A DNA stretch of 64,000 nucleotides from the NCBI GenBank assembly GCA_046292385.1, contig JBKBRF010000007.1, positions 1 to 64,000 of the forward strand, in the 5' to 3' direction. This DNA is from Armatimonadota bacterium (GTDB lineage: Bacteria; Armatimonadota; SYMT01). Under the pieces are notes generated by a model. It searched no databases. It was not told the origin of the DNA and worked only from the letters and a program-made list of their open reading frames with translations. Made by a program: the position numbers and the translations under genes. Positions 1 to 21,992 of this stretch are shown here, piece by piece; position 1 is the stretch's first letter, and the number at the start of each line of letters is the position of its first letter.

Positions 1-89
1 AGTTTGAAGATGGGAAACGCACCAAGTGCCTGGCGGCGATGAGCCGCGAGCGGGCAGCGGAACGCGAGTGGGAGAAGGTCGCCGCCTGA
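1..89 (+). CDS. 3' end of an unknown CDS (partial)
   Basis: Frame from position 3 reads FEDGKRTKCLAAMSRERAAEREWEKVAA, stop TGA at 87-89. Confidence 0.45.
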   Translation, partial: FEDGKRTKCLAAMSRERAAEREWEKVAA

Positions 90-124
90 TCCGCTTTTAC
101 ACACCTATTGACAAGAGCTCCTCG

Positions 125-745
125 CGGGTTCGGAGGTGTTGCCCCTCCAAAGACATTGCGGTGGTAGCTAATGCAAGGTCGAAGCAGCGACCTCCTTGCT
201 GAAGCCGCCTTCGGCGGCCACCATCCTACGCCCGCGCCCCTACGGATTGGCCACCAACGTCCGGTGGAACCGGCTTCGACCTCCGATCCATGCCACCGTC
301 ACTGCGGGGTCACCTGGCGTTCACTGACGGGTGAGTCGACATCCACATGGCCCCGGAACGTCGTTGTTGGCCTAACAATTGGTCCGTACTTCCGGCCTCT
401 CCAGGCACGGTGAGGTACGGATTCCTGGTCCTAGCGGCAGGACTTTTCGCAGGAGCATGCAGCAGTGTGCCCGGAACACCCGCACGACCACATCGCGGAG
501 GGTGACCGGCTAAGTCGAACGGCCGTTACCCTCCTGCTAAAGGCGCGGCGGTCACCGCGCACAGGCCAGAACCCTAGGCTCCTGCCCTAACGGCGTCTGT
601 CACAGGTACGATGCCGGCGGTGACTGCGGCCTGGAGCACGGACGCGGATGAGAATCGGCTTCCCATCCCGATCTCGCCGCCTCGGTTCGAGAGCTCCGAC
701 GGGTAACGTGGGAGGGAGCGATCAGGCCCCCCTCACCCTTCCCGG
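125..745. ncRNA. Candidate large structured non-coding RNA or ssDNA element upstream of the polymerase
   Basis: No credible CDS; nested stems 241-246/383-388, 249-259/362-372, 296-301/325-330, 497-506/525-534, 173-178/194-199, hairpin 204-218. Confidence 0.35.
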
Positions 746-756
746 AGTTTTCCTGT

Positions 757-2157
757 TTGAGTTACATCTATGCCCCCCAGGCTGTGTCCCGAGAGTTGCG
801 CGATGCCGCTCTGGACCTCCACCCCGCCCTGCGAGGAGATGACCCTCGCGTCCAGCAGTTCCGACGCCTCTACGGGCACTTCTTGTTCTGCAACTACCTC
901 GACGAGCACGGACGGATCATCACTCCTCACCGGACGGTCCAGGTGGTATCCGAAGTGACGGCTCACCGAAAGGGAAAAGGAACCGGCGCGGTCCTTCGGG
1001 AGTTCAACGAGCAGGTCATGCCTATCGACCTGTCTGGCTACAGTAGGGAGTATGGGCTGGCCCGAACAGTGGACCCGCAGTTCCCCGCGGAGATCCTGTG
1101 GTTGAAGTCAAAGAGCCTGCCGCGGGATCCGGAGTTGCCGCGCGACCGCGTCGACTTTGCGACGGGTGAACGCGTTTCGGCCTTCGCCTCACACCAACGG
1201 GCCGCCGACTACGCGTCTCGGCTCCAGCAACAGCTCGTTGTCCCGCTCCACGGTCATACCGCGGAGCTGGCTGGGATCCTCAACGACCAGCCGCGACACG
1301 CGCTGCTGAAGCAGATCCGCCGCGGATGGGACGCCACGAGGCAGTACGTTCAGGAGCTGCCACACGGTCTCTGCCGCCACCTAACCGAAAACATTCTGCT
1401 ACACCTGCTGGAGTTCTCGCCGGTCCCGCAGTACAGTGCGGTGGAGCGGTCGCCGCGGCTGTTCGCCCAGGGGGTGAATCTCACCCAAACACCGCGGGAA
1501 GGGCGGGGACATCTTCTCGGGGGCACGCTACTCGACCTCCGCTGCGCTCAGCTCGCGATCGTGGCGACCCTCTGGGGGGTGGACGAACTCCGGCAGTTCC
1601 TGGCGGACGGAGGCGCCATCTGGAAGGAGCTTCTGGGGCACGTCGGCCTCGGGGATCAGCTCGAGAGGTTTAAGCCCGTGCTCAAGGAGGCGGTCTACGG
1701 TACCATCTACGGGGCGAAGCGCCACAACGTGCTGCGGGAGCTCTCCCGCGGTCGGCCCGCGGCGCCCGGCGTGGGAGACGAGAGGGCGAAGACGCTGCTC
1801 GAGCACCCGTTCATGCAGGTACTGTTCGACCGCCGGGAAGCCAGGCAAGCGCAGATCCTTGACGACGGCGGCGTACGCAACGCCTTCGGCCAGTGGATTC
1901 CGTGTACCACTGGCCACCCGCATGAACTCCGCTCCCTCCTCTGCCAGCAGGTTCAGAGTTTCGAGATGCGGCTGATGCTCACGCTGGTGCCGGTGTTGCG
2001 GGACGAGCGCAACCTGCGCCCGCTCGCGTGGCTGCACGACGGGCTCGTCGTTCACGTAACGGACGACACGAAGTACACGCGAATCATCGCCCGGATGAAA
2101 CGCGTTGTTCAGGTCGAAGCGGACCGACTGGGCTTCCCCACCGGACTGGACCACTAG
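757..2157 (+). CDS. Divergent superfamily-A DNA polymerase (TV-Pol-like, no exonuclease domain)
   Basis: RLFAQGVNLTQTPREGR (PolA motif 2-like), motif A LLD260LRCAQLAIV, motif B KPVLK310EAVY314GTIYG, QSFE helix, motif C WLH427D428GL; TTG start with GGAG at 744-747. Confidence 0.75.
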   Translation: MSYIYAPQAVSRELRDAALDLHPALRGDDPRVQQFRRLYGHFLFCNYLDEHGRIITPHRTVQVVSEVTAHRKGKGTGAVLREFNEQVMPIDLSGYSREYGLARTVDPQFPAEILWLKSKSLPRDPELPRDRVDFATGERVSAFASHQRAADYASRLQQQLVVPLHGHTAELAGILNDQPRHALLKQIRRGWDATRQYVQELPHGLCRHLTENILLHLLEFSPVPQYSAVERSPRLFAQGVNLTQTPREGRGHLLGGTLLDLRCAQLAIVATLWGVDELRQFLADGGAIWKELLGHVGLGDQLERFKPVLKEAVYGTIYGAKRHNVLRELSRGRPAAPGVGDERAKTLLEHPFMQVLFDRREARQAQILDDGGVRNAFGQWIPCTTGHPHELRSLLCQQVQSFEMRLMLTLVPVLRDERNLRPLAWLHDGLVVHVTDDTKYTRIIARMKRVVQVEADRLGFPTGLDH

Positions 2158-2746
2158 GCTCTTAGGAACCTGTAATCCGATTCTTGAGGCGGAGGGCGAC
2201 GCGGGGCACCCGACCAGCGGCCCCCAGGCCACCGGGAGGGGGCGGGAGGCCCCCACCCAGGGAGGCCCGGGCGTATGTGTCCCCCCAACTACCAGATTCG
2301 TGGCTAGATTCTCTTCACCGGCATGCTAACTTGCCCTGCTGGGGCGATAGCGGCTGTTGCACGACTGCCTGGCGTATCAACGGGTCGCTGCCGCGGGAGC
2401 CGCTTGCGGGCGCAGACAAGCGCTCCGCTAACGGTGGCATCGCCCGGAACGCTGTTACACCCAAGGGATGATGACCGGGACGTGGCGTCCTCGATGGCTT
2501 CAAGAGTTCGTCAGCGGCGCGATTCCAGGGGAGCGCTACCGAGGACGCCCGCCGGTTCCACTCCGGCGCACTCCGCTGCCGTTTTCACGAGAGAGCTAGT
2601 CAACGGTTCCTGGCACCCGGGTCCGGGAACCGGCATCTCCCAAACCACTAATCGCCCGGGTATCGAGTCGCCCTGCGGTCAGAGACCCGCTCAACCAAGG
2701 AAGGAGTTCTCAAACAATAGTGTGAACCTCGCGCTGAGGTTCCGCC

Positions 2747-5700
2747 GTGCCCCCCGCCAAACCCCTCGTCCGCGCTACCCAGATCGGTGAGTTCATCCGC
2801 CACGGCGGCTGCGAGCGCCGTTTCAAGCTTGCCTTCAACGACTATGAGCTCGCGAACGCGCTCCCCTTCTTCTTCCAGCTCTCCACCACCATCGACCCGG
2901 TCCTCTCCGAGGCCGGCCGGCGCCGCGAGCGTGAGTGGGAGGAGCTAGTCCAAAGCGCCGGACTGGTAGATCTGTGCCGCTACGAGGAGCGGGAGGGCGA
3001 GGAGAAGACGCCCTGGGACGCCTTTGCGGCGCTGGCCGCGGCGCTGCCGGCGGGCACCAGTGGCTACGGCCGCGAGATCGAGGTCCGAGGGGAGATCGGC
3101 GGCTTCGCGGTGGTGGGCCGCATCGACTTCGTCCTGCTCCTCTGGACCGGGGACCGGTTCCGTCTCCGGCTTGTGGAGTGCAAAGCCAGCCGCCGCGACC
3201 GCACCTACCATCGCGTCCAGCTCGTCCTCTATCTCCTGATCCTGCGTCAGCTCCTCGCCGAGCAGCCCCTCGTGATCGACGGAGTTCCGGTCGCGCCCCA
3301 GGACCTGGAGTGCGTGGTCGCGCGGATCGACGAAGCGACCGACACGGTCCACGACGTGCTCGCGCTGCCGCCGCTGGACCTCTCCATGGAAGAAGCCGAC
3401 GTCCTCCGGCTGCTCGCCGCGAACGGTCCGCTCCAGCGCGTGCTCGCCACGGAGCTGGACGCGCTTCCGTTCCAGCTCGACTCGCGCTGCGACGACTGCG
3501 CTCTCCATGTCCACTGCCTCGCAGAGAGCGCTCGCCAGCGCCGGGTGGAGCTCCTGGGCGTTGACCCGAGCACTGCCCGCACGCTGCGGCAGGCCAGGAT
3601 CACCAGCCTTGACGACGTCGCCGAGCTCGACCTCGACAGCCCGGCGGCAGCCCGGATCCGCCGGGACCCCGGTTTCAGCGGCAACCTGGCAACCCTCGTG
3701 CTGAAGGCGCGGGCGCGGCGGCGCACCCTGCCAGGTGGCGACGGCGATCCGGAGGACCTGGAGGTGATGCCGCTCCCTCATAGCGGCAGCGGACAGCTCC
3801 CGGCCCACCTTCTCGATTCCGGCCGCCTCGTGCGCGTGTTTGTCTCGATCAGCTTTGACTACGTCGAGAACCGCGTCGGCGCGGTGGCCGCACACGTCAC
3901 CCGCAGTGACCGGCCGCTCTCGACACTGTTCCGCCAGGACGAGCAGGGGCGCTGGCGTCCGGACCCCGCCCCACGCGAGCAGTGGAAGGAAGACGGGAAT
4001 CCCGAGTGGCGGGAGCGTCCCGTGCAGGGCCAGGAGGTGGTCGGCGTCCTGCCCCAGGCGTGGTCCGGGGACTACGGCGCCGACACCGACCGCGAGCGGG
4101 ACCTGCTGCAGCGCTTCTTTGCGCGGCTCACCCAGGCGATCGGAAGCTACTGCCCTTCCGGTGAGGCGCCGGTCCACCTCTACTTCTGGAGCCGCGGCGA
4201 GGTCACGCGCCTGGTAGAAGCGTGCTCCCGCTGCGGAGGCGACCTGCTGGGACACCTCCGAGAGTTGCTCGGCTGCCGGGCCCCGCTCGAGCAGTTGATC
4301 TACTCCGTGCTGAAGGACGAGGTGGAGCACCGGTACGCGCTCGGCTGGTCCGGCAACGGACTGGTCGTCGCCAGCTCCCTCAAGTGGTTCGGGAGGCGCT
4401 TCCACTACACGCGCCGCGTCGGCGAGGAGGTCGTTGCGCTCGATCGGATCTTCGCCCAGGACCTTTTTGACTTCAAGACGACGCTCCGCTTCCGTGGAGA
4501 GAGGCCGGGGCAGCCGTGGCGGCCACCCGACGACACCGAGGCGGACCGTCACGCGTTCGAGGTTCACGCCTGCTTCGAGGACGCGCTGCCGGCGCCGTAC
4601 TGGCGGGCCGCTTGGGGCACCCTACCGGACCCGGAGGAGCCGAAAGTCCGGGTACGGCTGGACCCGAAGATCCGGGCGGCGCTGCGCCGCTACCGCCAGG
4701 CGGGCAGCCGACGCCTGCTCCGCGCCTATCTGGCCTCCCGCGTGCAGGCGCTGCGCTGGATCGAGGAGTCGATCAAGTTCAAGAACGACGGGATTCAAAA
4801 GCCGCCGCTGCGAGTAGACCGGCTCGCCAACTTCCAGCTCGGCGTCAACGACACCGCCCGCGCCGCGCTCGACTTCCTCTGGCTGGAGCAGCACGTCAAG
4901 GTGAACGACTGGTTGGCAACCCACCTTCTACCCCCGGTCACCCGCGTCCCCGAAGGTAAGACCGTCCCGCTCCGCAACCTCCGCGCCGTAGACGACAACG
5001 TGCTAGAGGCACAAATCGACCTCTCCGGCTACCCGTTCGACCGGGCCGCCCTGGAGACACGCTGTAGCTTCGCCGAGGGTGCCTTCGTACGCGTCAGCCC
5101 GTGCAGCGACGACCCCGCCCGCGGCCAGACGGTGAAGCAGCTCCTGCTGGCTGGCACCACCTGTGTAATCGAGCGGCTCGACTGGGAAGCCGGCGTCGTC
5201 CGTCTCGCCGTCCGACCTAACCGCGGGTCCGATCGGTACCTCCTCCGGAGCGGGGCATGGTCGACCGATCGGGATCCGTACCCGCACGCTACCATGGACG
5301 AGAGCCCCAGCGACTTCGTCGGCGGCCGGGTCGACGCCCGGCTACAGACCGGGCTCGGCTCGCACGCGTACTCCTGGTTCGACCCGACCGGGGCGCAACT
5401 CCCCGCCCAGGAGCCGCTCGAGGCGGAGCTCGCACTCCGATACGAGAGCCTGCTCCGCTCCTGGGCCGGGGCCAATTGCCCGCTGGCGGAGGACCAGCTC
5501 CGCGCCGCGCTCGACGGCTTGGGGGCGCGGGTGCAGCTTCTGCAGGGACCCCCTGGGACCGGTAAGACCCAGAGTACGGCGATAGCGATCCTGCTCCGGG
5601 TCCTGGCGCGGTATAGACCCGGCGACGTGGTGCTCGTGACGGGCAATACCCACCTCGCGGTCGATACGCTGCTCTCCCGCGTGCTCGCGCTGCTCCCCGC

Positions 5701-6910
5701 GTGGGAGGCGCACGTGACCGCGCAGGGACTCACGATGCCGCGTCTCCGCGTCGCGCGGGTCCACTCGTCGTTCTTCGGCACGCCCAGCACGGACGATCCG
5801 GTCGACCTCGGCGCCGATCGCTGCCACGTGCGGGTGCAGGAGTTGCAGGATGACGGCGTGCTGCTCCTCGGCGGCACCCCGGGAGCGCTGCTCAAGATGG
5901 CGGCCAATCTCGGCAAGTATCTTCCGTGGAAGCAGGAGCCGAACCGGTTCCAGGCGTCTCTGCTCGTCGTCGACGAAGCGTCGATGCTCCTCTTCCCGCA
6001 CTTCCTGGCGCTGACGTCGCTGACGCGGCAGGACGGGCAGATCCTGCTGGCCGGAGACCACCGACAGCTCGCGCCGATCATCGGACACGACTGGGAGAAC
6101 GAGGACCGGCCCACGGCCGTGCTCTACCAGCCGCACGTCTCCGCCTACGAGGCGGTCCAGCGCCTGAAGCTGGTGCAGGGTCTCCAGGACAACCAGATCC
6201 TACGCAGCGGCCTCCGCTACACCTTCCGGTTGCCGGCGCCGATCCGCGAGCTCCTCACGCGGCTCTACCGGCGCGACGGCCTGGAGTTGGAGGGGCGCAC
6301 CGACCCGGCCGGAGGTGGCGCTCCGCTGCCGACTTCGCCATGGGAGGCGCTCTGGAACGCGGAGGGCGGGTTGTTCCTGGTCACCCACGACGAGCGCAAC
6401 TCCAAGCAGTCGAACCCCATGGAAGCAGCGCTCATCCAGGAGATCCTGGCCGCGGGGGAGCGCCTGGGTCGGCTCGAGCCCGGCTCGGTCGGCATCGTAA
6501 TGCCGCACCGCTCGCAACGGGCGCTCCTGAAGCACGGGCTGCAGCAGTTCGACGGCGCCGTCGATGTGCTGGACACGGTGGAGCGACTGCAGGGCGGCGA
6601 GCGGGAGACGATCCTGGTCTCCGCCACCGCGAGTGACCCGACCGTGATCGCCGCTCGGGCCGACTTTCTCCTGAATCTCAACCGGGCGAACGTGGCGTTC
6701 AGCCGCGCGAAGCGGCGGCTGATCGTGGTGTGCGCGGAGTCACTCCTGACCCACATCGCGCCCGAGGTCGAGCACTACGAAGCGGCGGTCCTCTGGAAGG
6801 GGCTGCGGTCCCTCTGCTCGGAACCGGTAGCGCGGGTGACGCTCGGAGAGCATCGGGCTGAGCTGTGGAGGTATCCGCGCGGGGGTCCGTCGGGTGCCGG
6901 GTCTGGCTGA
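2747..6910 (+). CDS. Cas4/RecB-like PD-(D/E)XK Fe-S nuclease fused to a Dna2/UPF1-like SF1 helicase (TM0106-like architecture)
   Basis: GRID..LVECK..QLVLY nuclease motifs; N-terminal Cys plus CDDCALHVHC; HhH-like LLGVDPSTARTL; helicase motifs QGPPGTGKT, VDEAS, AGDHRQL, DTVERLQGGER, NRANVAFSRAKRR. Confidence 0.9.
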   Translation: MPPAKPLVRATQIGEFIRHGGCERRFKLAFNDYELANALPFFFQLSTTIDPVLSEAGRRREREWEELVQSAGLVDLCRYEEREGEEKTPWDAFAALAAALPAGTSGYGREIEVRGEIGGFAVVGRIDFVLLLWTGDRFRLRLVECKASRRDRTYHRVQLVLYLLILRQLLAEQPLVIDGVPVAPQDLECVVARIDEATDTVHDVLALPPLDLSMEEADVLRLLAANGPLQRVLATELDALPFQLDSRCDDCALHVHCLAESARQRRVELLGVDPSTARTLRQARITSLDDVAELDLDSPAAARIRRDPGFSGNLATLVLKARARRRTLPGGDGDPEDLEVMPLPHSGSGQLPAHLLDSGRLVRVFVSISFDYVENRVGAVAAHVTRSDRPLSTLFRQDEQGRWRPDPAPREQWKEDGNPEWRERPVQGQEVVGVLPQAWSGDYGADTDRERDLLQRFFARLTQAIGSYCPSGEAPVHLYFWSRGEVTRLVEACSRCGGDLLGHLRELLGCRAPLEQLIYSVLKDEVEHRYALGWSGNGLVVASSLKWFGRRFHYTRRVGEEVVALDRIFAQDLFDFKTTLRFRGERPGQPWRPPDDTEADRHAFEVHACFEDALPAPYWRAAWGTLPDPEEPKVRVRLDPKIRAALRRYRQAGSRRLLRAYLASRVQALRWIEESIKFKNDGIQKPPLRVDRLANFQLGVNDTARAALDFLWLEQHVKVNDWLATHLLPPVTRVPEGKTVPLRNLRAVDDNVLEAQIDLSGYPFDRAALETRCSFAEGAFVRVSPCSDDPARGQTVKQLLLAGTTCVIERLDWEAGVVRLAVRPNRGSDRYLLRSGAWSTDRDPYPHATMDESPSDFVGGRVDARLQTGLGSHAYSWFDPTGAQLPAQEPLEAELALRYESLLRSWAGANCPLAEDQLRAALDGLGARVQLLQGPPGTGKTQSTAIAILLRVLARYRPGDVVLVTGNTHLAVDTLLSRVLALLPAWEAHVTAQGLTMPRLRVARVHSSFFGTPSTDDPVDLGADRCHVRVQELQDDGVLLLGGTPGALLKMAANLGKYLPWKQEPNRFQASLLVVDEASMLLFPHFLALTSLTRQDGQILLAGDHRQLAPIIGHDWENEDRPTAVLYQPHVSAYEAVQRLKLVQGLQDNQILRSGLRYTFRLPAPIRELLTRLYRRDGLELEGRTDPAGGGAPLPTSPWEALWNAEGGLFLVTHDERNSKQSNPMEAALIQEILAAGERLGRLEPGSVGIVMPHRSQRALLKHGLQQFDGAVDVLDTVERLQGGERETILVSATASDPTVIAARADFLLNLNRANVAFSRAKRRLIVVCAESLLTHIAPEVEHYEAAVLWKGLRSLCSEPVARVTLGEHRAELWRYPRGGPSGAGSG

Positions 6911-6974
6911 AAGCTCCAGGCTCACCTGGTTCGACGTCGAACTAGGGTAGTCGAGAAGCAGCCCACGGAGGCTG

Positions 6975-7247
6975 CTACCGCTCGCCGCGACGAAGTCGGG
7001 GGCGAGTCACCTGTGCCGAGGGCTCATCGGCCAGCGCCTCTGCCCGGGTAATGAGCTCGGCGGCGCTCAGCCCAAGCGCGTCCGCCAGTCGGAAGACCAT
7101 GCTGATCGTGGCGCTGTACTGCCCGTTCTCCAGGTAGCTGATGTACGGACGCGTGCAGTCGATCGCCTCCGCCAGCTTCTCCTGGGAGAGGCCGGCGTTC
7201 TGACGCAACTCGCGCAGCACTTGCCCGAACGCCGCTTCCGGGGTCAC
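6975..7247 (-). CDS. XRE-family HTH transcriptional regulator
   Basis: FGQVLRELRQNAGLSQEKLA..YISYLENG..LADALG, typical HTH_3 pattern. Confidence 0.9.
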   Translation of the reverse strand: MTPEAAFGQVLRELRQNAGLSQEKLAEAIDCTRPYISYLENGQYSATISMVFRLADALGLSAAELITRAEALADEPSAQVTRPRLRRGER

Positions 7248-7295
7248 CGCCCATTCTCCCGCCTGGGTTCACGCATTCAGGGAGAGTTTGGAAGT

Positions 7296-7328
7296 TTGAC
7301 GTTCCGGTGACCGTCTAGTAAACTTTAC
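7296..7328 (+). promoter_or_regulatory. Sigma70-type promoter with overlapping palindromic operator
   Basis: TTGACG (7296-7301), 17 nt spacer, TAAACT (7319-7324); palindrome GTAAA-C-TTTAC at 7318-7328. Confidence 0.65.
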
Positions 7329-7401
7329 ATGCAGCGCTCGGGATGCCGGAGGGGGGACGGGCGCTAGTGCGATCAGCTACTACCACCCTTCCGATCGAGG
7401 G

Positions 7402-7740
7402 ATGATGCCGAGTATCTGGACCGTGAGCTACGTTCACCGCGACGGGATCGACGTGTCGACCTACAGCTCCGAGGAGGCTGCCTACCAGGGCGCTGCCATT
7501 ACGATCGCCAACCAGGTGGAGAACTGGGGTACGGAGCTCAAAGGTGAGACGCTGGCCGAGTTGTTCCTCGGCGGGCAGTACCGGGAGATGGTGAATCGCT
7601 GGCAGGAGCAGCAGCGCCCCGGACCCTGGGGTGAGCCCGAGCGATTGGAGTTCGAGCAAGACGACGTAGACGCGCCGCTTGCCGCGCTCGAGCAGGTCCA
7701 GGAGAAGGTGCGCCGCTGGCTGCGCGAGGACGAGGCGTGA
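7402..7740 (+). CDS. Hypothetical protein (112 aa)
   Basis: GAGG RBS, coding-like codon bias, downstream of the 7296 promoter. Confidence 0.7.
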   Translation: MMPSIWTVSYVHRDGIDVSTYSSEEAAYQGAAITIANQVENWGTELKGETLAELFLGGQYREMVNRWQEQQRPGPWGEPERLEFEQDDVDAPLAALEQVQEKVRRWLREDEA

Positions 7741-7832
7741 GCCTGGGGCCTGGGTGAAGGCCGGAACACCCAAGCTGATCTTCAGGCGGACGTGGATCGC
7801 GAGCGATGCTGAACGGGAGATGGAGAAGCGAC

Positions 7833-8690
7833 ATGGAAGCAAGAGCGAACCAGTATCGAATGGAGTATCTGCCGACGGGAGCCCTAGATCTCGACCCGCA
7901 GCAGTCCGGAAAGCGGAGAGATGAGCCCCGCCGGCTCGCCAGCCTCAAAGCGAACATCCAGCAGCGCGGATTACTGCACCCCCTCCTGGCACGACCGTAT
8001 CGGGATGATCCGGAGCGTTTTCGCGTCTACGCGGGAGGACGCCGGCTACTCGCCCTGAGACAGTTGCAGGCTGAACTTCCGGGAGAGTGGGACTTCGTAC
8101 CCTGCTTCATCACGGAGGGCCAAGGCGATGTAGAGGCCCTGGTGGACTCGATCTCGGAGAACGTCCACCGCCAGGACCTCACCGCGCTGGAGAAGGGAGA
8201 GAACATCCTCCAACTGATCGCCGCGGGCCTCAACATGAAGCAGATTGCTCCGATCGTGAACCTGGACTACGGCTTGATCCGGGACTATGCCGCAGGAACG
8301 CGGCACGCCATCGCATGCCCCGATCTCATGGAACTCGATCGGCAGAAGCCGATCCCGGAACGGATCCTGAAGGTGCTCCCGAAGGATCCCGAGCTACTCG
8401 ACTGGACGACCGCCCTATGGCGCGACTGGGAGGGAGACGTGGAGCCCCTCGCGAAGCGCATCACCCGCAAGCGGAAGGGCATCGAGTCTCCGGAGATCCC
8501 GGGAGGGCGGGGAGCATCTCGGATCGACCGCTTCCAGGCGTGCGTCAAGAGTCTTACCGCCGTCTGCGCGACGAACCTGCTGGAACTGGGGCCTCTCACC
8601 GCCGCGGAAGCCGTAGAGGTCCAACGCCTCCAACATTGGCTCGGACTCACCGCCACTCACCTCCAGTCGTTCGCCGCCCCGACCGAGTAG
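7833..8690 (+). CDS. ParB/RepB/Spo0J-family protein; start uncertain (7806, 7833 or 7860)
   Basis: LKANIQQRGLLHPLLARP..VYAGGRRLLA..SISENVHRQDLTALE (ParB N-terminal domain) followed by an HTH-like segment. Confidence 0.85.
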   Translation: MEARANQYRMEYLPTGALDLDPQQSGKRRDEPRRLASLKANIQQRGLLHPLLARPYRDDPERFRVYAGGRRLLALRQLQAELPGEWDFVPCFITEGQGDVEALVDSISENVHRQDLTALEKGENILQLIAAGLNMKQIAPIVNLDYGLIRDYAAGTRHAIACPDLMELDRQKPIPERILKVLPKDPELLDWTTALWRDWEGDVEPLAKRITRKRKGIESPEIPGGRGASRIDRFQACVKSLTAVCATNLLELGPLTAAEAVEVQRLQHWLGLTATHLQSFAAPTE

Positions 8691-8869
8691 TACTGCCAGC
8701 TACCATCCCACGACAGCCAAGTGATCCGAATCGGGCTAACGACCGCGTCCGACCCGCAGGCGGAAGAAGTAGTACGCGCGGAGGTAGCTCCTTCACGCGT
8801 ACCCACGCGGCCCCTCACGCGCCCGGGCATCCCCTCACGGCCCCCGCTGGTCGTCGCTGGTCTCGGCGG

Positions 8870-9754
8870 CTAAGGTCCGTCCTTACGCAGCGTGAGCACA
8901 AACCGACCCGGCGTTACGCCGGTGGTCTTGCGCGGCGTGTGGCAGCCGAGACTATCCTGGAACAGGAGCCCGCGTCGATGATCGCAGCCCGGCAGTTCGC
9001 CGGCGTCGAGTGCCGCCCAGACCTCGCGGTCCTTGAGCAGCAGGGCGTCGACGCGCCGCTGGCTGTAGGGAACCGTGAACACCTTGAAGGGGGCGTTGAG
9101 CAGCCCCTTCGGGTCGTCGTAGGTCTGGGGCTCTTTCCCGTAGTACTTCGGGTCGACGTCCTTGCCCCAGTACATGATCATCACGTCGGGCGGGGTCGCG
9201 AGCGGCTTGCCGCCGAGACGCTCGTGCTGGAACCACGGCTGCGTCACGAAGTGGCTGTAGAGCATCGTCTGGCCGAGGTGCTCGTCCTTCGGCTGGACCA
9301 GCTTCTTGAACGCCGAGTCCTTGATCTCAGCCTTCAGGATCTCGCCGCTGTCCGGGTGCTCGTCCAGGATGAAGCGGTCTCGCGCCGTGATCGACTTCAC
9401 GTCGACGATGTAGCGCTTCCCCTGCGGGTCGTCGTCGTCCGTCACCTCGTAGGTCTCGAAGACCTCCCCGGTGCTCTTCACCCGGACCTTCTTGCGGCGC
9501 AGCGGCCGCGAGAGGCCGTTCAGCGTGCCGCGCAGGCGGTGCTCGTCGCTCTTGAGCGCGACCTCGAACAACCCGTTGAAGCCGAAGTGGCCGTGCTCGT
9601 CGATCGTGGGCTCCCCGTCGATCCACCCGAGGGCGCCGGTATTGCGGAACCCGGCGAGCGGTAGTCCGCGGCGGCGCCAGGAGAGAGAGATTCCCGCGGC
9701 TTCCAGGTGCTGGATTCTCTCGCTCCCGACGTGTCCCGCATCATAACCGGTCAC
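8870..9754 (-). pseudogene. Phage-type Cas4-like PD-(D/E)XK nuclease, probably degraded
   Basis: RGTLNGL (motif II, Asn where Asp is expected), YIVDVKS, HLGQTMLY; strong GC3 only from ~9000 to ~9650; ends look non-native. Confidence 0.5.
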
Positions 9755-9840
9755 CGTCGTGCAGGCCTACTGGACCTTAGGGGCCCTCTTATTGGTGACA
9801 CTCGCCCGGTCCGGCGGGCCTGTCGCCCGCGCTCGCGCCA

Positions 9841-10047
9841 GTCTAAGACTTCGTATCTCTTCGGAGGTAACTCAGGTTCTTTAGCTAGTACCGCTCCCTA
9901 CGAAGTCTTTCGCTCTATCCCTTCGGGTACTAGAGTTCTACCCAGTAATAGAGGGTGCAGATTGTGCTCCCGCCGGACCCCAACCCATTCGGAGCCGGAA
10001 GCCCCGGGTTAAGCAGGGGAGCTAGGGGTCGGTGGAAGCCGCACCTT
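9841..10047. other. AT-richer structured non-coding block with CTTCGG hairpin loops
   Basis: Perfect 11-bp IR 9845-9855/9899-9909; CTC-TTCG-GAG 9857-9866; CC-TTCG-GG ~9920-9927; IR 9913-9918/9948-9953. Confidence 0.5.
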
Positions 10048-10063
10048 TATGATTGGACGGAGC

Positions 10064-10330
10064 TCAACCGAACCTTACGGTGATTTCTGCGGCGATCGCG
10101 ATCGTCGGGGTGCTCCACGTGAGCGGCAGCACGTACTGCGCTACCAGGAAGCCGGTCTGCTCGTTGTCGATCCCGACGTAGCCGCCGAACTAGAACCCCG
10201 GAGGCGCGGTCCGGGTACTTCCGCCCGAAGTCGTCGGCCAGCTCCAGGAAACCGGTCACGCGCCCGAAGTCCGACTCGTCGACCACGCTGGACAGCTTGA
10301 GGAACAGGGGGTCGATCCCATGAACTGGTG
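10064..10330 (-). pseudogene. Gene remnant with a frameshift and an in-frame stop
   Basis: GC3-biased frame DPLFLKLSSVVDESDFGRVTGFLELADDFGRKYPDRAS shifts near 10196-10201 to GF*FGGYVGIDNEQTGFLVAQYVLPLTWSTPTIAIAAEITVRFG*; TAG at 10190-10192. Confidence 0.5.
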
Positions 10331-10616
10331 GCTTGCCTCGCCCTAACCGATCACCTGCAGCGTGATCGCCCCTGACCGCGTGACCTCGACGAGAGAAGCT
10401 CCACCGGTCCGATCTCCAGGCGCCCGCTGGAGCCGGCCAAGCCACCCCGCACCCGAGTTCACCGCCCCAACGACGGGGGCCTCTGGGTCACCGACACCGC
10501 GAGTGTCACCCATGCGTCGGACCCCTAAGGTCCAGGTAGGAACACCCCTCCGCGCCGTGCTACGATCCGGACCACAGAGGCGGGTGAGTAGTGAGCCCGC
10601 CGCGGAGATCATCACG

Positions 10617-11795
10617 ATGGACCTGATCAAGCTCGAAGGGGAGTTCCTTCGGCACCTCGCCGCGCGACAGAAGTGTAGCGCGGCCACCGTCAAGACGTAT
10701 CGTTCGGCCTTCCGACAGGCCTGGCGCTGCACCCAGATGATGGGCGTGGAACTGGACACCGAGGCACTCGACTACACCTGGGCCGACCTGCTGGTCGACT
10801 GGTGGTGCGGAGAGCAGAAGCTCGGCCCGCGAACGGTGCATCGGAACGTCACCGCCCTGCGCTCCATGTTCGCGTTCGCCCGGAAGCGGCGCTGGACCGA
10901 GCGCGACCCGTTCGCCCACCTCGACCTCCCTGACAAAGGTGCGGTCGAGCGGGTCCACCTCACCACCGACGACCAGAACGCGCTGGTGCGGGCCGCCGCC
11001 CATCTTCCCGATCCGCGCTTCGCGGCCATGGCCAGGGCCCTAGTCCTGACGCAGCTCACCGTGGGGACCCGGGTGAGCGAACTCCTCGACCTGAAAGTCA
11101 GCGACCTCGATCTCTGTCAGCAGGTGGTTCACATTAACCACGGCAAGGGAGACCAGGAGCGCGAGGTCGTGCTAGACGACCGGGCCACGGCGGCACTGGA
11201 GGTCTGGCTGCAGGTACGTCGGCAGTGGCTCGACACGCGGCAGGAGTCCGGACGCTTCCGGGGTGGGGAGCCGGAGGCGGTTTGGTTAGCGGATCGGGGG
11301 CGCCGCCTCTCCTCCCAGGGCGTCTACGCGCTCCTGGATGAGCTCACCGCCGGCACGCCCCTGGCCGGAAAGGTCCGCATCCATGACCTGCGCCACGCGA
11401 CCGCAAAGCGCTGGTTCCGGGATGGCGTGCCGCTGGAGCAGATCCAGCAGCGGCTGGGGCACTCCAGCCGAAGCACCACGGAGCAGTACATCCGGGGCGC
11501 GAGCCCGAACACCCGCCTCTGGGCCGAACGCTGCGGACTTCCGGAAACCGCCGCCCGCGGAGACAGCCCACACGCTCTCGGAGCGCCCGCCGCCGGTGAT
11601 CGCCCTCCGGTGCCGACCCCCGCTCCGAAGAACTCCGAACTCCCGCGACCGGGCCGATCGTTCCGCCCGCAACACCCGCTCGTGGCGCAGCACCTGCAGA
11701 ACCTGCGGGAGCGGATGCTCGCGCACGCGACCGGGGCTCACCCCCTCCCCTTCCAGCCACCGCTCTTCCCGGGGCTTCGGCCGCACCGCCGGTAG
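10617..11795 (+). CDS. Tyrosine recombinase/integrase (XerC-like) with a Pro-rich C-terminal tail
   Basis: SAATVKTY core-binding region; catalytic set GTRVSEL, GKGD, HDLRH, LGH, TTEQY; ATG 10617 preferred over 10362. Confidence 0.92.
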   Translation: MDLIKLEGEFLRHLAARQKCSAATVKTYRSAFRQAWRCTQMMGVELDTEALDYTWADLLVDWWCGEQKLGPRTVHRNVTALRSMFAFARKRRWTERDPFAHLDLPDKGAVERVHLTTDDQNALVRAAAHLPDPRFAAMARALVLTQLTVGTRVSELLDLKVSDLDLCQQVVHINHGKGDQEREVVLDDRATAALEVWLQVRRQWLDTRQESGRFRGGEPEAVWLADRGRRLSSQGVYALLDELTAGTPLAGKVRIHDLRHATAKRWFRDGVPLEQIQQRLGHSSRSTTEQYIRGASPNTRLWAERCGLPETAARGDSPHALGAPAAGDRPPVPTPAPKNSELPRPGRSFRPQHPLVAQHLQNLRERMLAHATGAHPLPFQPPLFPGLRPHRR

Positions 11796-11823
11796 GGACG
11801 GTACGCGCCGGACTATCCGGGCT

Positions 11824-11859
11824 CTCGACCCGCTCGCGCCACTCCGCTGGCGGGTCGAG
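11824..11859 (+). terminator. Hairpin downstream of the integrase
   Basis: Perfect 10-bp IR CTCGACCCGC/GCGGGTCGAG; no U-tract. Confidence 0.35.
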
Positions 11860-11951
11860 CCCGGCCCGTGCCGCGAACCGAGACTCGAGCCCGCTGAGTC
11901 ATGGTGAGAATCGCCTGGCTCCGCTGGACTCTACACGTGAAGAAGACCCGA

Positions 11952-11980
11952 TTGACAGGCCTCAGGGGATCGGCTAGACT
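11952..11980 (+). promoter_or_regulatory. Sigma70 promoter of tRNA-Gly
   Basis: TTGACA, 17 nt spacer, TAGACT, about 90 nt upstream of the tRNA. Confidence 0.8.
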
Positions 11981-12069
11981 ACCGATGGCTCAGGTCCACC
12001 GGAGACAGACGGGCGAGTCCAGAATCTAGGGTTCAACTCGTAGGCACACCGGACCGGAGATTCTGCCAC

Positions 12070-12141
12070 GCGGGAGTAGTTCAGTGGTAGAACGTCAGCT
12101 TCCCAAGCTGAATGTCGTGGGTTCGAGTCCCATCTCCCGCT
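12070..12141 (+). tRNA. tRNA-Gly(CCC), CCA not encoded
   Basis: Acceptor GCGGGAG/CTCCCGC, D-loop AGTGGTA, anticodon loop TTCCCAA, T-arm GGTTCGAGTCC. Confidence 0.97.
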
Positions 12142-12145
12142 TCAC

Positions 12146-12162
12146 CCCCTGACTTTCAGGGG
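12146..12162 (+). terminator. Hairpin after the tRNA; second IR at 12184-12205
   Basis: CCCCTGA-CTT-TCAGGGG; then CAGGTTC-N8-GAACCTG. Confidence 0.45.
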
Positions 12163-12311
12163 TAGAGTCTAAAACCACACCTCCAGGTTCGGTAGGTAGA
12201 ACCTGAAATCGACCCTCGTTCTCACGGGCTGCGGCCCAGTGAGCGGCGAGGGTTTTTCTACGCTCCTGGCCGTGCCGACGCAGCGGCGAGCTCGACGACC
12301 GCCGTGGTCTC

Positions 12312-13175
12312 TCAGGCTCGGGCGCGCATCCAGTCCAGAATCTCCTGGAAGATCCGTTCCCGCTCCCGTTCCCGCAGCAGCTCGTGGAGGAGCCCGGGGT
12401 AGCTGCGGTAGGTCTTGTCCCGGGAGCCGGCCGCCTCGTACAGCTCTCGCGCGGCGGCGGGGTCCGCCACCGGGTCGTCCTCGCCCATCAGGACCAGCAG
12501 CGGCTGCCGCAGGTCTCCCGCGTGACGCAGGGTCTCCTCCTGCGCGCGCACGCAGCCGAGATACCAGCGCGGGGTGGCGATCGGCAGAATGTACGGGTCG
12601 TGGCCCGACTCGGAGCGCATCTCGTCGTCCGAAGACATCCAGTCGCCCTTGAGGCCGGTCGGGATCGGCAGCCACGGCAGGAGCGGATCGACCACCCGCG
12701 CCAGCCAGGTCTTGTACGCCGGCACCTGGAACCGGGTGCGCAGGTACGGGGCGCAGAGGATGCAGCCGGCCATTTCGGAGAGGCCGTGCTCCAGCGCGTC
12801 GGCCAGCACCAGCCCGCCATGGCTGTGCCCCAGGAGAAAGAGCGGCGTGTCGCCGCGGTCCTCCGCGCGAAGGCCCTCGCACCGGAGCAGCGCCTCCACG
12901 TCCTCCCGGTAGTCATGCCAGTCCCGCACGAAGCCGCGGCGGCCGGACGAGCGGCCCTGGCCGCGGAAGTCGAGCGCGTGACCTTCCACGCCGCGCTCCG
13001 CCAGCCACCGGAGGACGTGCCGATGCCGGCCGGAGTGCTCGCCGTAGCCGTGGAGCAGCGCCAGGTGCGCCCACGGCGCGGCGGGGCGGACGCGGATCCG
13101 GTGGAGCGACTGCTCCCCGCAGCGGATCGTCTCCTCGGACTCGCTAATGCGGGAGGGAGAAAGCACGGCGCTCAT
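12312..13175 (-). CDS. Alpha/beta hydrolase (lysophospholipase/monoacylglycerol lipase family)
   Basis: LLHGYGEHSGR, DFRGQGRS, GHSHGG, LHELLRE; ATGA overlap with the upstream gene. Confidence 0.88.
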   Translation of the reverse strand: MSAVLSPSRISESEETIRCGEQSLHRIRVRPAAPWAHLALLHGYGEHSGRHRHVLRWLAERGVEGHALDFRGQGRSSGRRGFVRDWHDYREDVEALLRCEGLRAEDRGDTPLFLLGHSHGGLVLADALEHGLSEMAGCILCAPYLRTRFQVPAYKTWLARVVDPLLPWLPIPTGLKGDWMSSDDEMRSESGHDPYILPIATPRWYLGCVRAQEETLRHAGDLRQPLLVLMGEDDPVADPAAARELYEAAGSRDKTYRSYPGLLHELLRERERERIFQEILDWMRARA

Positions 13176-16010: not shown

Positions 16011-16625
16011 GTGACCGACCTGATCCTCGACCACGTCTCCAAGCGCTTCGGCGCGCGGACGGTGCTGCGGAACGTGTGCGCGGAGGTGCGCGCGGGGGAA
16101 GCGCTCGTCGTGACGGGGCACAACGGCTCCGGCAAGTCGACCCTCCTCACGATCATCGCGGGCCTGCTGGGAGCGGATGGAGGCGCGGTGCGGGTGCGGG
16201 AAGAGGGGCGGGAGCTGGAGCCGGAGGAGCTGCGGCACAGGGTCAGCCTGGTGGCGCCGGACCTCACCCTCTACCCGGAGCTGACCGCCCTGGAGAACCT
16301 GGAGTTCTTCGCCCGGGTGCGCGGTCTGCCGTGGAGCCGCGCGGGCGGAGAGGCGCTGCTGGAGCGCGTGGGGCTGGCCGGACGCGGCCCGGACCTGAGC
16401 GGGACCTTCTCCTCCGGCATGCGGGTGCGGCTGAAGTACGCCGTGGCGCTCCAGAGCGACCCGAGCGTGCTGCTGCTCGACGAGCCGACCGCCATGCTCG
16501 ACGTCGGCGGCGCGCGGATCGTGGAAGAGATCATCGCGGAGCAGCGGAAGCGAGGCCTGCTGGTGCTCGCCACCAACGACCCGGACGAGACGCGCCACGG
16601 CGACCTCTTCCTGCACCTGGGGTGA
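16011..16625 (+). CDS. ccmA: Heme exporter ATP-binding protein
   Basis: GHNGSGKST, FSSGM, LLLDEP; first gene of the ccm cluster. Confidence 0.85.
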   Translation: MTDLILDHVSKRFGARTVLRNVCAEVRAGEALVVTGHNGSGKSTLLTIIAGLLGADGGAVRVREEGRELEPEELRHRVSLVAPDLTLYPELTALENLEFFARVRGLPWSRAGGEALLERVGLAGRGPDLSGTFSSGMRVRLKYAVALQSDPSVLLLDEPTAMLDVGGARIVEEIIAEQRKRGLLVLATNDPDETRHGDLFLHLG

Positions 16626-16630
16626 TCTTC

Positions 16631-16705
16631 AGGGCGGAGTGCAGAGGACGGAGTGCGGAATTCAGACCCCTCGTACGAGAGGTTCGGTCCTCTGCACTCC
16701 GCCCT
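16631..16705. repeat. GAGTGC-family palindromic element between ccmA and ccmB
   Basis: Perfect 19-bp IR 16631-16649/16687-16705; followed by a CCCCTTCC..GGAAGGGG REP-like hairpin at ~16757-16780. Confidence 0.7.
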
Positions 16706-16819
16706 CGTCCCTCTGTCCTCAGGTGAGGGGAGCTATTGGTGTTGTGCCTGCCTGCTCCCCCTTCCACTTCAGGGAAGGGGGCTGGGGGGTTAGGCCGCGT
16801 GAGAAGGGCGTAACTTCCC

Positions 16820-17605
16820 GTGGAACACGGCAGCGGAGCGAGCACCGCGCAAAACTGGTGGAGCGAAGTGCGGGCGGTCTTTACCAAAGACCTCCGCTCC
16901 GAGCTCCGGACGCGCGCGGCGGTCGCCACGATCCTGCTCTTCGCCGTCGTCACGCTGATCGTCATCAGCCTGATGGTACCCACGGAGGGCCGCGGGCTCA
17001 CGCACGAGCTGGTGCCGGACTACCGGGAGCTCCTCCGCCGGGACCCGAACGCCGAGCTCTTCCGGATGACGCTCAACGAGACGGTGGTCCGGGCCTATCT
17101 TCTCTCGGCGCTGCTCTGGGTGGTGCTCTTCTTCAGCGCGATGGCGGGCCTCCCCCGGACCTTCGTGAAGGAAGAGGAGATGCGGACCGCCGGCGCGCTG
17201 CGCCTCTACGCGCGGCCGAGCGCGGTCTTCGCCGGGAAGCTCGCCTTCAACTGCGTCCTCAGCCTGGTCGTCGTGCTGGTCGTCCTGCCGCTCTTCCTGG
17301 TTCTCTTCCGGCCCCGCGTGGTAGACTGGGGCCTCTTCCTGGCCCACCTCCCCCTCGGGGCGCTGGGCATGGCGGGGAGTGCGACGATCCTGGGCGCGAT
17401 CGTGGCCCGGGCCGGCGGCAAGAGCTACCTGATGCTGCCGCTGGCGTTCCCGGTGCTGCTGCCGGTGCTCGCCTTCGCGATCGATGGCACCGCCGCCGCG
17501 GTCCTGGGAAAAGAGGGCAACCGGATCATCGCCCTCGTGTCCTATCTGGTGGCGATGACTACCGTCTCTGCGCTTCTCTTTGAGCGGGTGTGGAGTGATA
17601 GTTGA
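16820..17605 (+). CDS. ccmB: Heme exporter permease
   Basis: KDLRSELRTR, LLWV..FFSAM, FVKEEE, LAFPVLLPVL; multiple TM helices. Confidence 0.88.
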   Translation: MEHGSGASTAQNWWSEVRAVFTKDLRSELRTRAAVATILLFAVVTLIVISLMVPTEGRGLTHELVPDYRELLRRDPNAELFRMTLNETVVRAYLLSALLWVVLFFSAMAGLPRTFVKEEEMRTAGALRLYARPSAVFAGKLAFNCVLSLVVVLVVLPLFLVLFRPRVVDWGLFLAHLPLGALGMAGSATILGAIVARAGGKSYLMLPLAFPVLLPVLAFAIDGTAAAVLGKEGNRIIALVSYLVAMTTVSALLFERVWSDS

Positions 17606-17657
17606 AGCGTCCCGTTTTCCGGAACTTGGCGCCTCGCCGTGCGTAAACTGAGTACGA

Positions 17658-18434
17658 ATGGCAAATCGCGTCGATAAGTCGGGAGGAATGGCCCTGGCAC
17701 CCTGGAAGTGGCTGCTGCTGCCGTGGATGGCGGCGGTGATCTGCATGGCCTACCTGTGGGCCGGAGACCTGCCGCAGTTCCAGTCGCCGCAGACGGCTCG
17801 CATCATCTTCTGGCACGTGCCGATGGCGATGCTCTCGCTGGTCTGGTTCTGGGTCGCCGCGTTCTACTCGTTCCGCTATCTCACCCGCAGGGATGAAATG
17901 GACGACGTCAAGGCGTCCCGGGCGGCGGAGGTAGGGCTGCTGCTCACCGTGCTCGCTACGCTCACCGGCGCCGTCTTCTCCAAGATGCAGTGGGCGGGCG
18001 GCCTGAACAGCCCCTGGTACGAAGGATACTGGCAGTGGGATCCGCAGCAGATCTCGATCCTGCTGGTGATCGTCTACTTCGCGGCCTACTTCGCGCTCCG
18101 GCTCTCGATCGACGACGAGACGCAGCGCGGACGGTTTTCCGCGGTCTACGCCCTGATCGGCGCGGCGGCGGTGCCGTTTATCTACTTTGTGCTGCCGAAG
18201 CTGCCGGTCTTTGGAACCACGATCCACCCGGAGAGCGTCATTCGTAAGGGAATGGACGTTCCGTACCGGGTGACCTACTGGAGCGCCACCTTCGGATTCC
18301 TCGGGATCTCGCTCTGGGCCTACCAGCTCCGCCTGCGGGTGGAAGCGCTCGCGGCGCGGCGCGCGGCAAAGGGAACCCTGATAGAGACGACCACCCGGAC
18401 GGAAGCGGTGCGCAAGCCGGTGACGGAGCCCTGA
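17658..18434 (+). CDS. ccmC: Heme exporter protein C
   Basis: RIIFWHVP, WWD-type WYEGYWQWDP, IHP; alternative start 17688. Confidence 0.88.
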   Translation: MANRVDKSGGMALAPWKWLLLPWMAAVICMAYLWAGDLPQFQSPQTARIIFWHVPMAMLSLVWFWVAAFYSFRYLTRRDEMDDVKASRAAEVGLLLTVLATLTGAVFSKMQWAGGLNSPWYEGYWQWDPQQISILLVIVYFAAYFALRLSIDDETQRGRFSAVYALIGAAAVPFIYFVLPKLPVFGTTIHPESVIRKGMDVPYRVTYWSATFGFLGISLWAYQLRLRVEALAARRAAKGTLIETTTRTEAVRKPVTEP

Positions 18435-18435
18435 G

Positions 18436-18543
18436 ATGGAGATTTATGTCGTCCTCGCGACGAGCCTGATCGTCTGGATTGCGCTGTTTGCCTACATAGC
18501 CCGGGTCGACGCCCGGCTGAAGGACCTGGAGAATCGGGAATGA
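18436..18543 (+). CDS. ccmD: CcmD-like small membrane protein (35 aa, absent from the ORF track)
   Basis: MEIYVVLATSLIVWIALFAYIARVDARLKDLENRE; between ccmC and ccmE, ATGA overlap with ccmE. Confidence 0.8.
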   Translation: MEIYVVLATSLIVWIALFAYIARVDARLKDLENRE

Positions 18544-21914: not shown

Positions 21915-21992
21915 GGTGTGAGCGCGGCTGTCGCTGCCGGACGCCAGGGCCATGCGGTCCTGGCGTCCGCGGCATGGGGTGTGGAAAAGAGC

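Follow-up and report, generated by a model that had tools for sequence, protein, structure and literature searches.

TV-Pols are minimal family A polymerases of 400-600 residues that lack a nuclease domain and are carried by mobile elements (PMC2579912). Their core is composed of a bihelical thumb, a beta-hairpin bearing an Arg residue, two palm Asp residues and an RxxxK motif in the fingers, and they were predicted to be the primase-polymerases of the elements that carry them (Iyer, Abhiman and Aravind 2008, PMC2579912). One TV-Pol subset has an extra N-terminal domain and is encoded in restriction-modification hot spots, in the vicinity of integrase, resolvase or transposase genes, and in the other subset a D5-type SF3 helicase is fused or linked to the polymerase; Microcystis phage LMM01 was given as a TV-Pol carrier (PMC2579912). 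Here we analyze an open reading frame (ORF) at positions 757-2157 of a 64,000-nucleotide stretch of DNA (contig JBKBRF010000007.1 of the Armatimonadota assembly GCA_046292385.1, positions 1 to 64,000; hereafter the window). By profile alignment and structure prediction the 466-residue product was confirmed to be a real and intact polymerase of the Pol I type (family A) that lacks a proofreading domain. The identification is firm because both the profile matches and the structure matches far exceed chance.

A second system that must be considered is CcPol-MP, an A-family polymerase that primes with deoxynucleoside triphosphates (dNTPs) and is paired with the OB-fold protein MP (available portion of PMC7581432). 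According to the same portion, CcPol keeps E174 and F225, the equivalents of Klenow E710 and F762, and MP is a small protein encoded between the CcPol and helicase genes. The SSBs (proteins that bind single-stranded DNA) of the PolA-SSB primases are described as escaping sequence comparison. As of 2020, no TV-Pol-type enzyme besides CcPol had been biochemically tested, as stated in the available text of PMC7581432. The pipolin polymerase piPolB is likewise an element-borne polymerase that may need no separate primase (excerpted text of PMC10061031), although piPolB belongs to family B whereas the window polymerase belongs to family A and might only conjecturally prime for itself. Two divergent PolA proteins occur in large phages (part of PMC11348598), but these are not members of the present family because no phage record matched it. 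A full-text search for literature on A-family polymerase primases of mobile elements listed nothing beyond the TV-Pol and CcPol-MP/PolA-SSB papers.

Searched as a single sequence against Pfam, PADLOC, PHROGs and NCBIfam, the 466-residue protein gave nothing at E <= 1, and the sole phmmer match among PDB sequences was a chance one (E 0.76). A word-indexed homologue search found only four relatives, and the alignment of these with the query gave a first, shallow profile, from which an exhaustive profile search uncovered a far larger family (see below). The family alignment used here comprises 119 of 152 proteins, with fragments, proteins that matched in several stretches and the longest proteins left out. 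When compared with the PDB, the 119-sequence profile matched 28 distinct sequences at E <= 1, all of which were family A polymerases (18 Taq-type, six Pol theta, three T7 DNA polymerase and one Pol nu) and none an RNA polymerase. The top match was KlenTaq (E 1.7e-6, profile positions 232-466). In that alignment R234 is paired with the Arg of TGRLSS and D260 with the motif A Asp, and Q265 falls on the Glu that follows five positions later. RxxxKxxxFGxxYG is matched by K306, K310, Y314, residue 318 and G319, the QGTAAD Gln by Q400, and HDE by H427-D428-G429. We take the aligned positions to be those numbered E710, F762, Y766 and D882 in Klenow. An earlier note, made from the letters of the window alone, had called the protein a divergent superfamily-A polymerase, had proposed the motif order with D260, K306, K310, Y314 and H427-D428, and had equated Q265 with Klenow E710 and Y314 with F762. 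The profile alignment reproduced that map and both pairings, with the residue numbering derived anew.

Structure prediction led to the same fold. The model made from the shallow alignment had a mean predicted local distance difference test (pLDDT) score of 72.7 and gave 122 Foldseek matches in the PDB at E <= 0.001, the best 50 of which were all family A polymerases. The model from the 119-sequence alignment had a pLDDT of 95.2 and a predicted template modelling (TM) score, pTM, of 0.92. VIA-align comparison of that model with 48,161 chains placed Klenow first (Z 17.1, root-mean-square deviation 3.8, 293 aligned residues, model residues 150-466). Rows 2-13 were likewise family A DNA polymerases with Z scores of 16.9 to 9.2, and the next rows were RNA polymerases, those of N4 (RNAPII, Z 8.9), T7 (8.7) and yeast mitochondria (8.6). 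A BFVD structure search gave phage family A polymerases, none of them close (TM <= 0.48). The ESM Atlas contains the polymerase itself, and its nearest clusters there are unnamed, some coming from tailed phages, whereas the structure search of the Atlas gave Pol I clusters at TM 0.52-0.55. The model has a strand at 257-261 (motif A), helical fingers at 264-370 and a hairpin at 420-434 with H427-D428 at its turn. This predicted topology is that of the Pol I palm and, together with the alignment, indicates that D260 and D428 probably form one active site. The assignment to family A made by the earlier note is therefore borne out by the Taq profile match, Foldseek and the Klenow structure match, and the modelled palm and fingers are those on which that note had made its assignment depend.

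Existing family models do not capture these proteins. None of 91 family members attains any Pfam cut-off, and for PF00476 (DNA_pol_A) four of the 91 score 16-19 bits against a gathering cut-off of 34.3, such that none passes. The window polymerase has the fold and the motif order of the Pol I polymerase domain (Klenow/KlenTaq, PF00476). In contrast to Pol I, which has a Glu gate, HDE and a motif B Arg, the window polymerase has Gln, HDG and Lys at these sites, and it lacks the exonuclease domains of Pol I and has an additional invariant residue, Glu403. Only 150 residues precede the polymerase fold and these gave no Pfam exonuclease match. The absence of an exonuclease and of a fused helicase, both noted earlier, agrees with a chain of 466 residues whose structure matches span 150-466; a weak search for fused forms of 957-2730 residues found none.

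Residue counts were taken from the columns of the 119-sequence alignment. Six residues are invariant in all 119 proteins: R234, D260, W289, K310, E403 and D428. Kept in at least 90% are R103, V132, G137, Y226, R250, Q265, L282, K306, Y314, G319, R360, G378, Q400, H427 and G429 (R250, K306 and Q400 each in 117 proteins, H427 and G319 each in 115). The gate position 265 is Gln in 112 and His in seven of the 119 proteins and is never Glu. At O-helix position 314, 115 proteins have Tyr and four have Phe. At position 318 Phe prevails (80 proteins), Tyr being present in 38. Motif C position 429 is Gly in 118 proteins and Ser in one, giving HDG where Pol I has HDE. E403 is specific to the family and has no Pol I counterpart, although the Q..E spacing of Q400 and E403 also aligns in the phage LMM01-type family discussed below. 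As the substitutions are family-wide, the Gln/His gate, Tyr314 and HDG are traits of the whole family rather than local oddities. The local strings at the polymerase motifs of the window protein are LDLRCAQLAIVA, KPVLKEAVYGTIYG (motif B), QSFE and WLHDG. The features of the gene, of its product and of the neighboring genes are given in Table 1.

Table 1 Positions in the window of the polymerase gene, the segments of its product and the genes that follow it
Feature	Position	Strand	Basis
Family A polymerase gene, 466 residues, TTG start at 757	757..2157	+	ORF list, Taq profile match, Klenow structure match, codon-position GC
GGAG, likely ribosome-binding site, 8 nt 5' of the TTG start	745..748	+	Read from the sequence
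N-terminal domain, residues 1-150, R103/V132/G137 conserved	757..1206	+	Outside the polymerase structure matches
Predicted thumb helices and beta-hairpin, residues 151-256, with R234 and R250	1207..1524	+	Model helices 167-220, strands 225-238
Motif A, residues 257-270 (LLDLRCAQLAIVAT), catalytic D260 and gate-position Q265	1525..1566	+	Aligned with Taq LDYSQIELRVLA
Fingers O-helix, motif B, residues 299-319, K306xxxK310xxxY314GxxY318G319	1651..1713	+	Aligned with Taq RRAAKTINFGVLYGM
Q400-S-F-E403	1954..1965	+	Q400 aligned with the Gln of Pol I QGTAAD
Motif C, L426-H427-D428-G429, second catalytic Asp at the beta-turn	2032..2043	+	Aligned with Taq VHDE; strands 420-425 and 429-434
Nuclease-helicase, 1387 residues, 590 nt 3' of the polymerase	2747..6910	+	Pfam PDDEXK_1, AAA_11, AAA_12; PADLOC MkoA-like C-terminus
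XRE-type helix-turn-helix regulator	6975..7247	-	Pfam HTH_31, HTH_3
112-residue protein, between the XRE regulator and the ParB-like gene			No match named
ParB-like protein	7806..8690	+	Pfam ParB_N below cut-off; NCBIfam parB_part 5e-12, below cut-off
294-residue protein, between the ParB-like gene and the integrase			No match named
Tyrosine integrase, right end of the element	10362..11795	+	Pfam Phage_integrase 1.3e-28; NCBIfam Xer-like below cut-offs
tRNA-Gly(CCC), likely integration site	12070..12141	+	ARAGORN; Rfam tRNA 74 bits

An unrecognised N-terminal region is indeed present, as first proposed, but because the structural polymerase matches begin at residue 150-165 it is of about 150 residues and not about 230, residues ~150-230 being the thumb and the start of the palm and thus part of the polymerase fold. 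The ESM Atlas structural neighbors of residues 1-160 were domains of the winged-helix type, namely RepA_N, ScpB, ArsR and the C-terminal region of Pox_D5, all with TM scores (0.33-0.45) below the level accepted. From these weak neighbors the domain is possibly a winged-helix-like DNA-binding module. The N-terminal 225 residues had no detectable homology with the N-terminal 205 residues of the LMM01 family (hhalign 0.13%).

Comparison with the TV-Pols was made both by features and by profiles. The window polymerase has the TV-Pol core, namely thumb helices at 167-220, a hairpin at 225-238 that carries R234, and the two Asp residues D260 and D428. Motif B differs, being RxxxK in the TV-Pols and KxxxK in the present family. 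The recombinase and restriction-modification neighborhood of TV-Pol genes is also seen around the polymerase family, which the account of the TV-Pol subset with the extra N-terminal domain suits, and the hosts overlap (planctomycetes, verrucomicrobia, bacteroidetes and proteobacteria). In contrast, the D5-helicase linkage of the other TV-Pol subset was not seen in the loci examined; none of the neighbors scanned was a D5-type helicase and no fusion was seen. A HMMER search of the 162-kb LMM01 genome with the family profile gave nothing significant (best E 0.11-0.39). LMM01 encodes MAP_030, a 506-residue hypothetical protein beside two transposase genes, in which the layout is an Arg hairpin, D..H, KTAxLAVING and QHDG. 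From its size, motifs and transposase neighbors we infer that MAP_030 is the LMM01 TV-Pol of PMC2579912. When the 119-sequence family was compared by hhalign with an LMM01-type alignment made from the eight homologues of MAP_030, the match was 86.2% with E 4.9e-6 over 184 columns, and R234, D260, K310, Q..E and HDG were paired between the two families. The gate position of the MAP_030 family is His. The MAP_030-family profile alone found no polymerase among its PDB matches. These alignments suggest that the catalytic core of the polymerase family is remotely related to the TV-Pol type. The family is best filed as a distant member or a sister of the TV-Pols, and some of its members may already be in the set of that paper.

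As far as the available portions of PMC7581432 and PMC10061031 show, CcPol-MP and the PolA-SSB primases are, like the window polymerase, A-family enzymes without working proofreading that are borne on integrative elements (SCC and related ones in their case), and CcPol-MP, like the window polymerase, is encoded near site-specific recombinases and a helicase gene. CcPol has kept the Glu and Phe residues, whereas the window polymerase has Q265 and Y314. CcPol requires MP, whereas in the 590-nt gap that follows the window gene no ORF is credible, nor do the loci of the family have a small partner in common. By the same partial text, CcPols bear remnants of the exonuclease domain, whereas the N-terminus of the window polymerase is a different domain, and the CcPol-MP examples described there are all from Bacillota and associated with large serine recombinases, whereas the present family occurs in many other phyla and mostly with tyrosine integrases.

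Gene content indicates that the polymerase gene is cargo of an integrative element with a tyrosine integrase beside a tRNA-Gly gene. The window begins at base 1 of the contig, and the left part of the element lies beyond the contig end. The distance from polymerase to integrase within the window is 8.2 kb, the 5' end of the tRNA-Gly gene points toward the element, and from 12.3 kb the genes are housekeeping ones (hydrolase, aminotransferase, cytochrome c maturation and haem synthesis). GC content at third codon positions is 0.77-0.88 in the element genes versus 0.87-0.95 in the housekeeping genes. When the genome assembly was searched for the tRNA end, no further copy stood out as a clear attachment-site partner, and Rfam over positions 1-13000 reported nothing but the tRNA. 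The large protein encoded downstream of the polymerase is composed, in order, of a Cas4/RecB-like PD-(D/E)xK nuclease, a helix-hairpin-helix, a long unassigned middle and a C-terminal SF1 helicase, and judging from this order its overall layout is Dna2-like. It has one early Cys residue and a later CxxCx5C, the pattern of iron-sulfur nucleases such as Cas4, AddB and Dna2. The polymerase gene is bordered by non-coding stretches of ~670 nt (89-756) and ~590 nt (2158-2746), in which we found no Rfam match, notable repeat or credible ORF; the 590-nt gap has only two Arg/Pro/Gly-rich frames. A scan of positions 1-3000 for promoters and terminators gave nothing that exceeded shuffled sequences, and a repeat search of positions 1-2800 gave only short two-copy matches that we took to be chance. 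The housekeeping block at 16011-28728, which is unrelated to the polymerase, encodes CcmA, B, C, E and F-like proteins, glutamyl-tRNA reductase and a HemD/methylase fusion.

Another copy of the polymerase, 37% identical to the first, is found on contig 74 of the same genome (L009 8835-10319, minus strand). A tyrosine integrase other than that of the window is encoded 3.4 kb away, with housekeeping genes beyond it. The element around this copy also encodes an AAA ATPase, a UvrD-type helicase to which a PD-(D/E)xK nuclease is fused, and several proteins of unknown kind.

The family is large. The exhaustive HMMER search with the first profile gave 1522 cluster representatives at E <= 1e-3, 1285 at E <= 1e-10 and 919 at E <= 1e-30, and among the 150 matches listed nearly all were of 430-550 residues and aligned end to end. 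Family members were found in 32 of 401 Armatimonadota genomes (E <= 1e-10) and in 28 of the 300 high-quality ones, some of which hold two or three copies, and five of 61 relatives carry the family. Fifteen loci with a family member came from named records, which belong to Armatimonadota, Patescibacteria, betaproteobacteria, gammaproteobacteria, Rhodothermota, Bacteroidota, Planctomycetota, Verrucomicrobiota and Deinococcota. A pattern search of genome contigs based on the first alignment gave 18 matches, none of them a relative. Among plasmids, tblastn found one record, a Deinococcus peraridilitoris megaplasmid on which the protein is annotated as hypothetical, and in IMG/VR two contigs had a family member.

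One of the IMG/VR genomes is informative. This sequence (G402, L071/L072) is 25,156 bp long with direct terminal repeats and 100% estimated completeness, and its gene content indicates that it is a complete small temperate tailed phage. The family member adjoins the integrase. Of the 27 phage ORFs, 11 had a PHROG match (integrase, two HNH proteins, small and large terminase subunits, portal, adaptor, head, protease, tail and homing endonuclease), none of which was a replication protein, such that the polymerase is the sole recognised replication-type enzyme of this phage. The homing endonuclease is of the GIY-YIG type. Seventeen of the ORFs were compared with Pfam, which gave no match for any of them, and 16 had no match of any kind, including those of proteins of 1147, 837 and 565 residues.

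Neighbors within 6 kb were surveyed at the 39 of 40 submitted loci in which the polymerase ORF was present. One cluster of tyrosine integrases was found at 12 of these 39 loci, often within 2 kb of the polymerase and convergent with it. Serine recombinases, ArdC and DNA methylases were each present at three. In one genome an HmaC protein with an N-terminal HEPN domain ends 35 nt 5' of the polymerase gene (L063 2645-5974), in another HmaA and HmaB are encoded 2.4 kb 3' of it (L047 1634-7623), and in two genomes DrmD of the DISARM type starts ~380-400 nt 3' of the polymerase on the same strand (L051 11745-14885; L054 11405-14242).

We favor the interpretation that the gene specifies an element-encoded, catalytically intact family A DNA polymerase that copies its element and possibly primes its own synthesis, and we put the probability of this at about 0.53. 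After excision or entry, the polymerase would copy the element DNA with dNTPs and without proofreading. It may itself start chains, and its N-terminal domain may hold the template or origin, which in CcPol-MP is the job of a separate MP/SSB subunit.

Several observations weigh against this interpretation. No helicase, SSB or other protein is conserved beside the polymerase at the 39 loci, the largest neighbor cluster other than the recombinases being an SNF2 helicase at four of them. BLASTP of 69 candidates from the same loci gave no small downstream ORF in common, and the nuclease-helicase of the window had no relative beside the polymerase in five other loci. As neither a nuclease-helicase nor a small ORF recurs, the polymerase has no fixed partner. 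Defence genes are frequent neighbors (DrmD, HmaA/B/C, type I and IIG restriction-modification and DndH-like), and a defence role thus fits these neighborhoods equally well. The phage is also open to another reading: its 16 blank ORFs mean that other replication proteins may be hidden among them. In prophages, the slot beside the integrase is typically occupied by accessory genes and not by replication modules. None of 50,697 cultured phage records encodes a relative (tblastn). In other genomes some copies are split into two frames or truncated (L011 3536-5214; G044, G126 and G143), as expected of decaying mobile-element cargo. As for the activity itself, priming by the family, and with it the primase-polymerase activity raised in the earlier note, is purely conjectural and suggested by context, and the Gln found in nature may point to an enzyme of low fidelity or specialised function since Klenow E710Q is a poor and error-prone enzyme (available portion of PMC3715850).

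The main rival assigns the polymerase to defence against phages or plasmids, either as a component of a defence module or as a protein that acts alongside one. It might, for instance, cooperate with the adjacent nuclease-helicase or with DISARM/Hma-type SNF2 helicases. It could fill in or extend DNA to which the helicase-nuclease has given access, or make a product by which the invader is blocked. Near the polymerase gene, several loci indeed encode helicases, some with a nuclease fused or adjacent: SF1 plus Cas4-like in the window, UvrD plus PD-(D/E)xK in the paralogous element, and elsewhere SNF2 plus NOV_C, SNF2 plus PLD and DrmD. Moreover, the DrmD genes of L051 and L054 and the HmaC gene of L063 lie close to the polymerase gene, and AbiJ-like, type I and IIG restriction-modification and DndH-like genes are among the neighbors. 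However, the best cluster is found at only four of the 39 loci, which may be kin, and no partner is conserved. The polymerase itself has no PADLOC match, and the 25-kb phage has the polymerase without a recognised defence partner. Mobile elements often bear defence cargo, and restriction-modification hot spots around TV-Pol genes have been noted (PMC2579912). We consider a defence role unlikely, although it is the strongest competitor.

Also to be considered is a role in establishment or repair rather than replication, in which the polymerase would make the complementary strand of incoming single-stranded DNA or fill gaps at integration, excision or transposition. ArdC, methylase, ParB-like and coupling-protein genes typically occur in those regions of conjugative elements that enter early. 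Such genes are found near the family: ArdC anti-restriction genes and orphan DNA methylases (each at three of the 39 loci), the ParB-like gene of the window, and a coupling-protein/HerA-like giant protein in L056. The absence of proofreading and the mutator-like gate residue would also suit short patch synthesis. Against this, in the part of the element within the window (the left part being beyond the contig end) neither a relaxase gene nor type IV secretion genes were seen, the family is also present in tailed-phage genomes, and such jobs are normally done by host polymerases. This role therefore seems rather doubtful.

The residues of the active site raise a third alternative, that Gln265 and Tyr314 relax sugar choice, such that the enzyme would function as an RNA polymerase or in the synthesis of RNA or mixed primers. 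The earlier note had pointed to altered sugar-selection residues and to possibly relaxed specificity. These positions do differ from those of Pol I, and the Glu residue by which Pol I excludes ribonucleotides is never present in the family. Single-subunit RNA polymerases are among the structure matches (Z 8.6-8.9), and in the TV-Pol paper the ancestral enzyme was proposed to have combined RNA priming with DNA polymerase activity (PMC2579912). However, the DNA polymerases match about twice as strongly (Z 17.1 versus 8.9) and Q400 is a Pol I-type residue. Gln and Glu are isosteric. At the position of Klenow F762, Tyr is the state found in T7 DNA polymerase and affects the use of dideoxynucleoside triphosphates rather than that of ribonucleoside triphosphates. 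T7 RNA polymerase has at the position equivalent to 318 a Tyr residue that is needed for ribonucleotide selection, whereas most family members have Phe there. Because DNA polymerases match better than RNA polymerases and because of Phe318 in most members, we infer that the family probably uses dNTPs. In the available portion of PMC3715850, Klenow E710Q is described as a mutator that binds dNTPs weakly (overall dissociation constant for the correct dNTP 230 µM, versus 0.83 µM for the wild type). According to the same source, it closes on rUTP no better than the wild type does (fingers-closing constants of 0.056 for E710Q, 0.083 for the wild type and 0.16 for E710A). Hence, the second part of the earlier claim does not follow: Gln265 by itself does not imply relaxed sugar selection. 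Note also that the one tested relative, CcPol-MP, primes with dNTPs only (same part of PMC7581432). Relaxed sugar choice is quite improbable.

Finally, that the ORF is an inactive relic or a chance open frame can be dismissed as extremely improbable: although many long spurious ORFs arise in GC-rich DNA (the window is 68% GC) and some copies of the gene elsewhere are split, the conservation data contradict this reading, full-length homologues being present in 1522 clusters with invariant catalytic residues, the GC content by codon position (0.72/0.42/0.81) is coding-like and the pLDDT of the model is 95.

Beyond the interpretation that we favor, in which the polymerase copies its element, a broader and much more tentative proposal can be made. 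The family may form a widespread clade of its own whose members are self-sufficient replicases of the Pol I type; in these the N-terminal domain would replace the SSB or primase partner and the Gln/His gate, HDG and Glu403 would adapt the active site for de novo starts. We think this unlikely as it stands. If true, the clade would define a class of integrative elements and small temperate phages that replicate themselves, spread over many phyla, and would be the family A counterpart of the piPolB pipolins.

The identification of the family has more immediate consequences. About 1,500 protein clusters labelled only 'hypothetical', and not covered by the versions of Pfam, NCBIfam, PHROGs and PADLOC searched, are Pol I-type polymerases by the profile and structure evidence given above. 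Across at least eight phyla the family is a marker of integrative elements and of some small phages, and a profile made from the 119-sequence alignment would improve the annotation of mobile elements. The window polymerase is a compact, single-chain and confidently modelled candidate with which to ask how the Pol I fold can function when both the gate Glu and the Glu of motif C are missing, whether such an enzyme can prime and what it does for its element.

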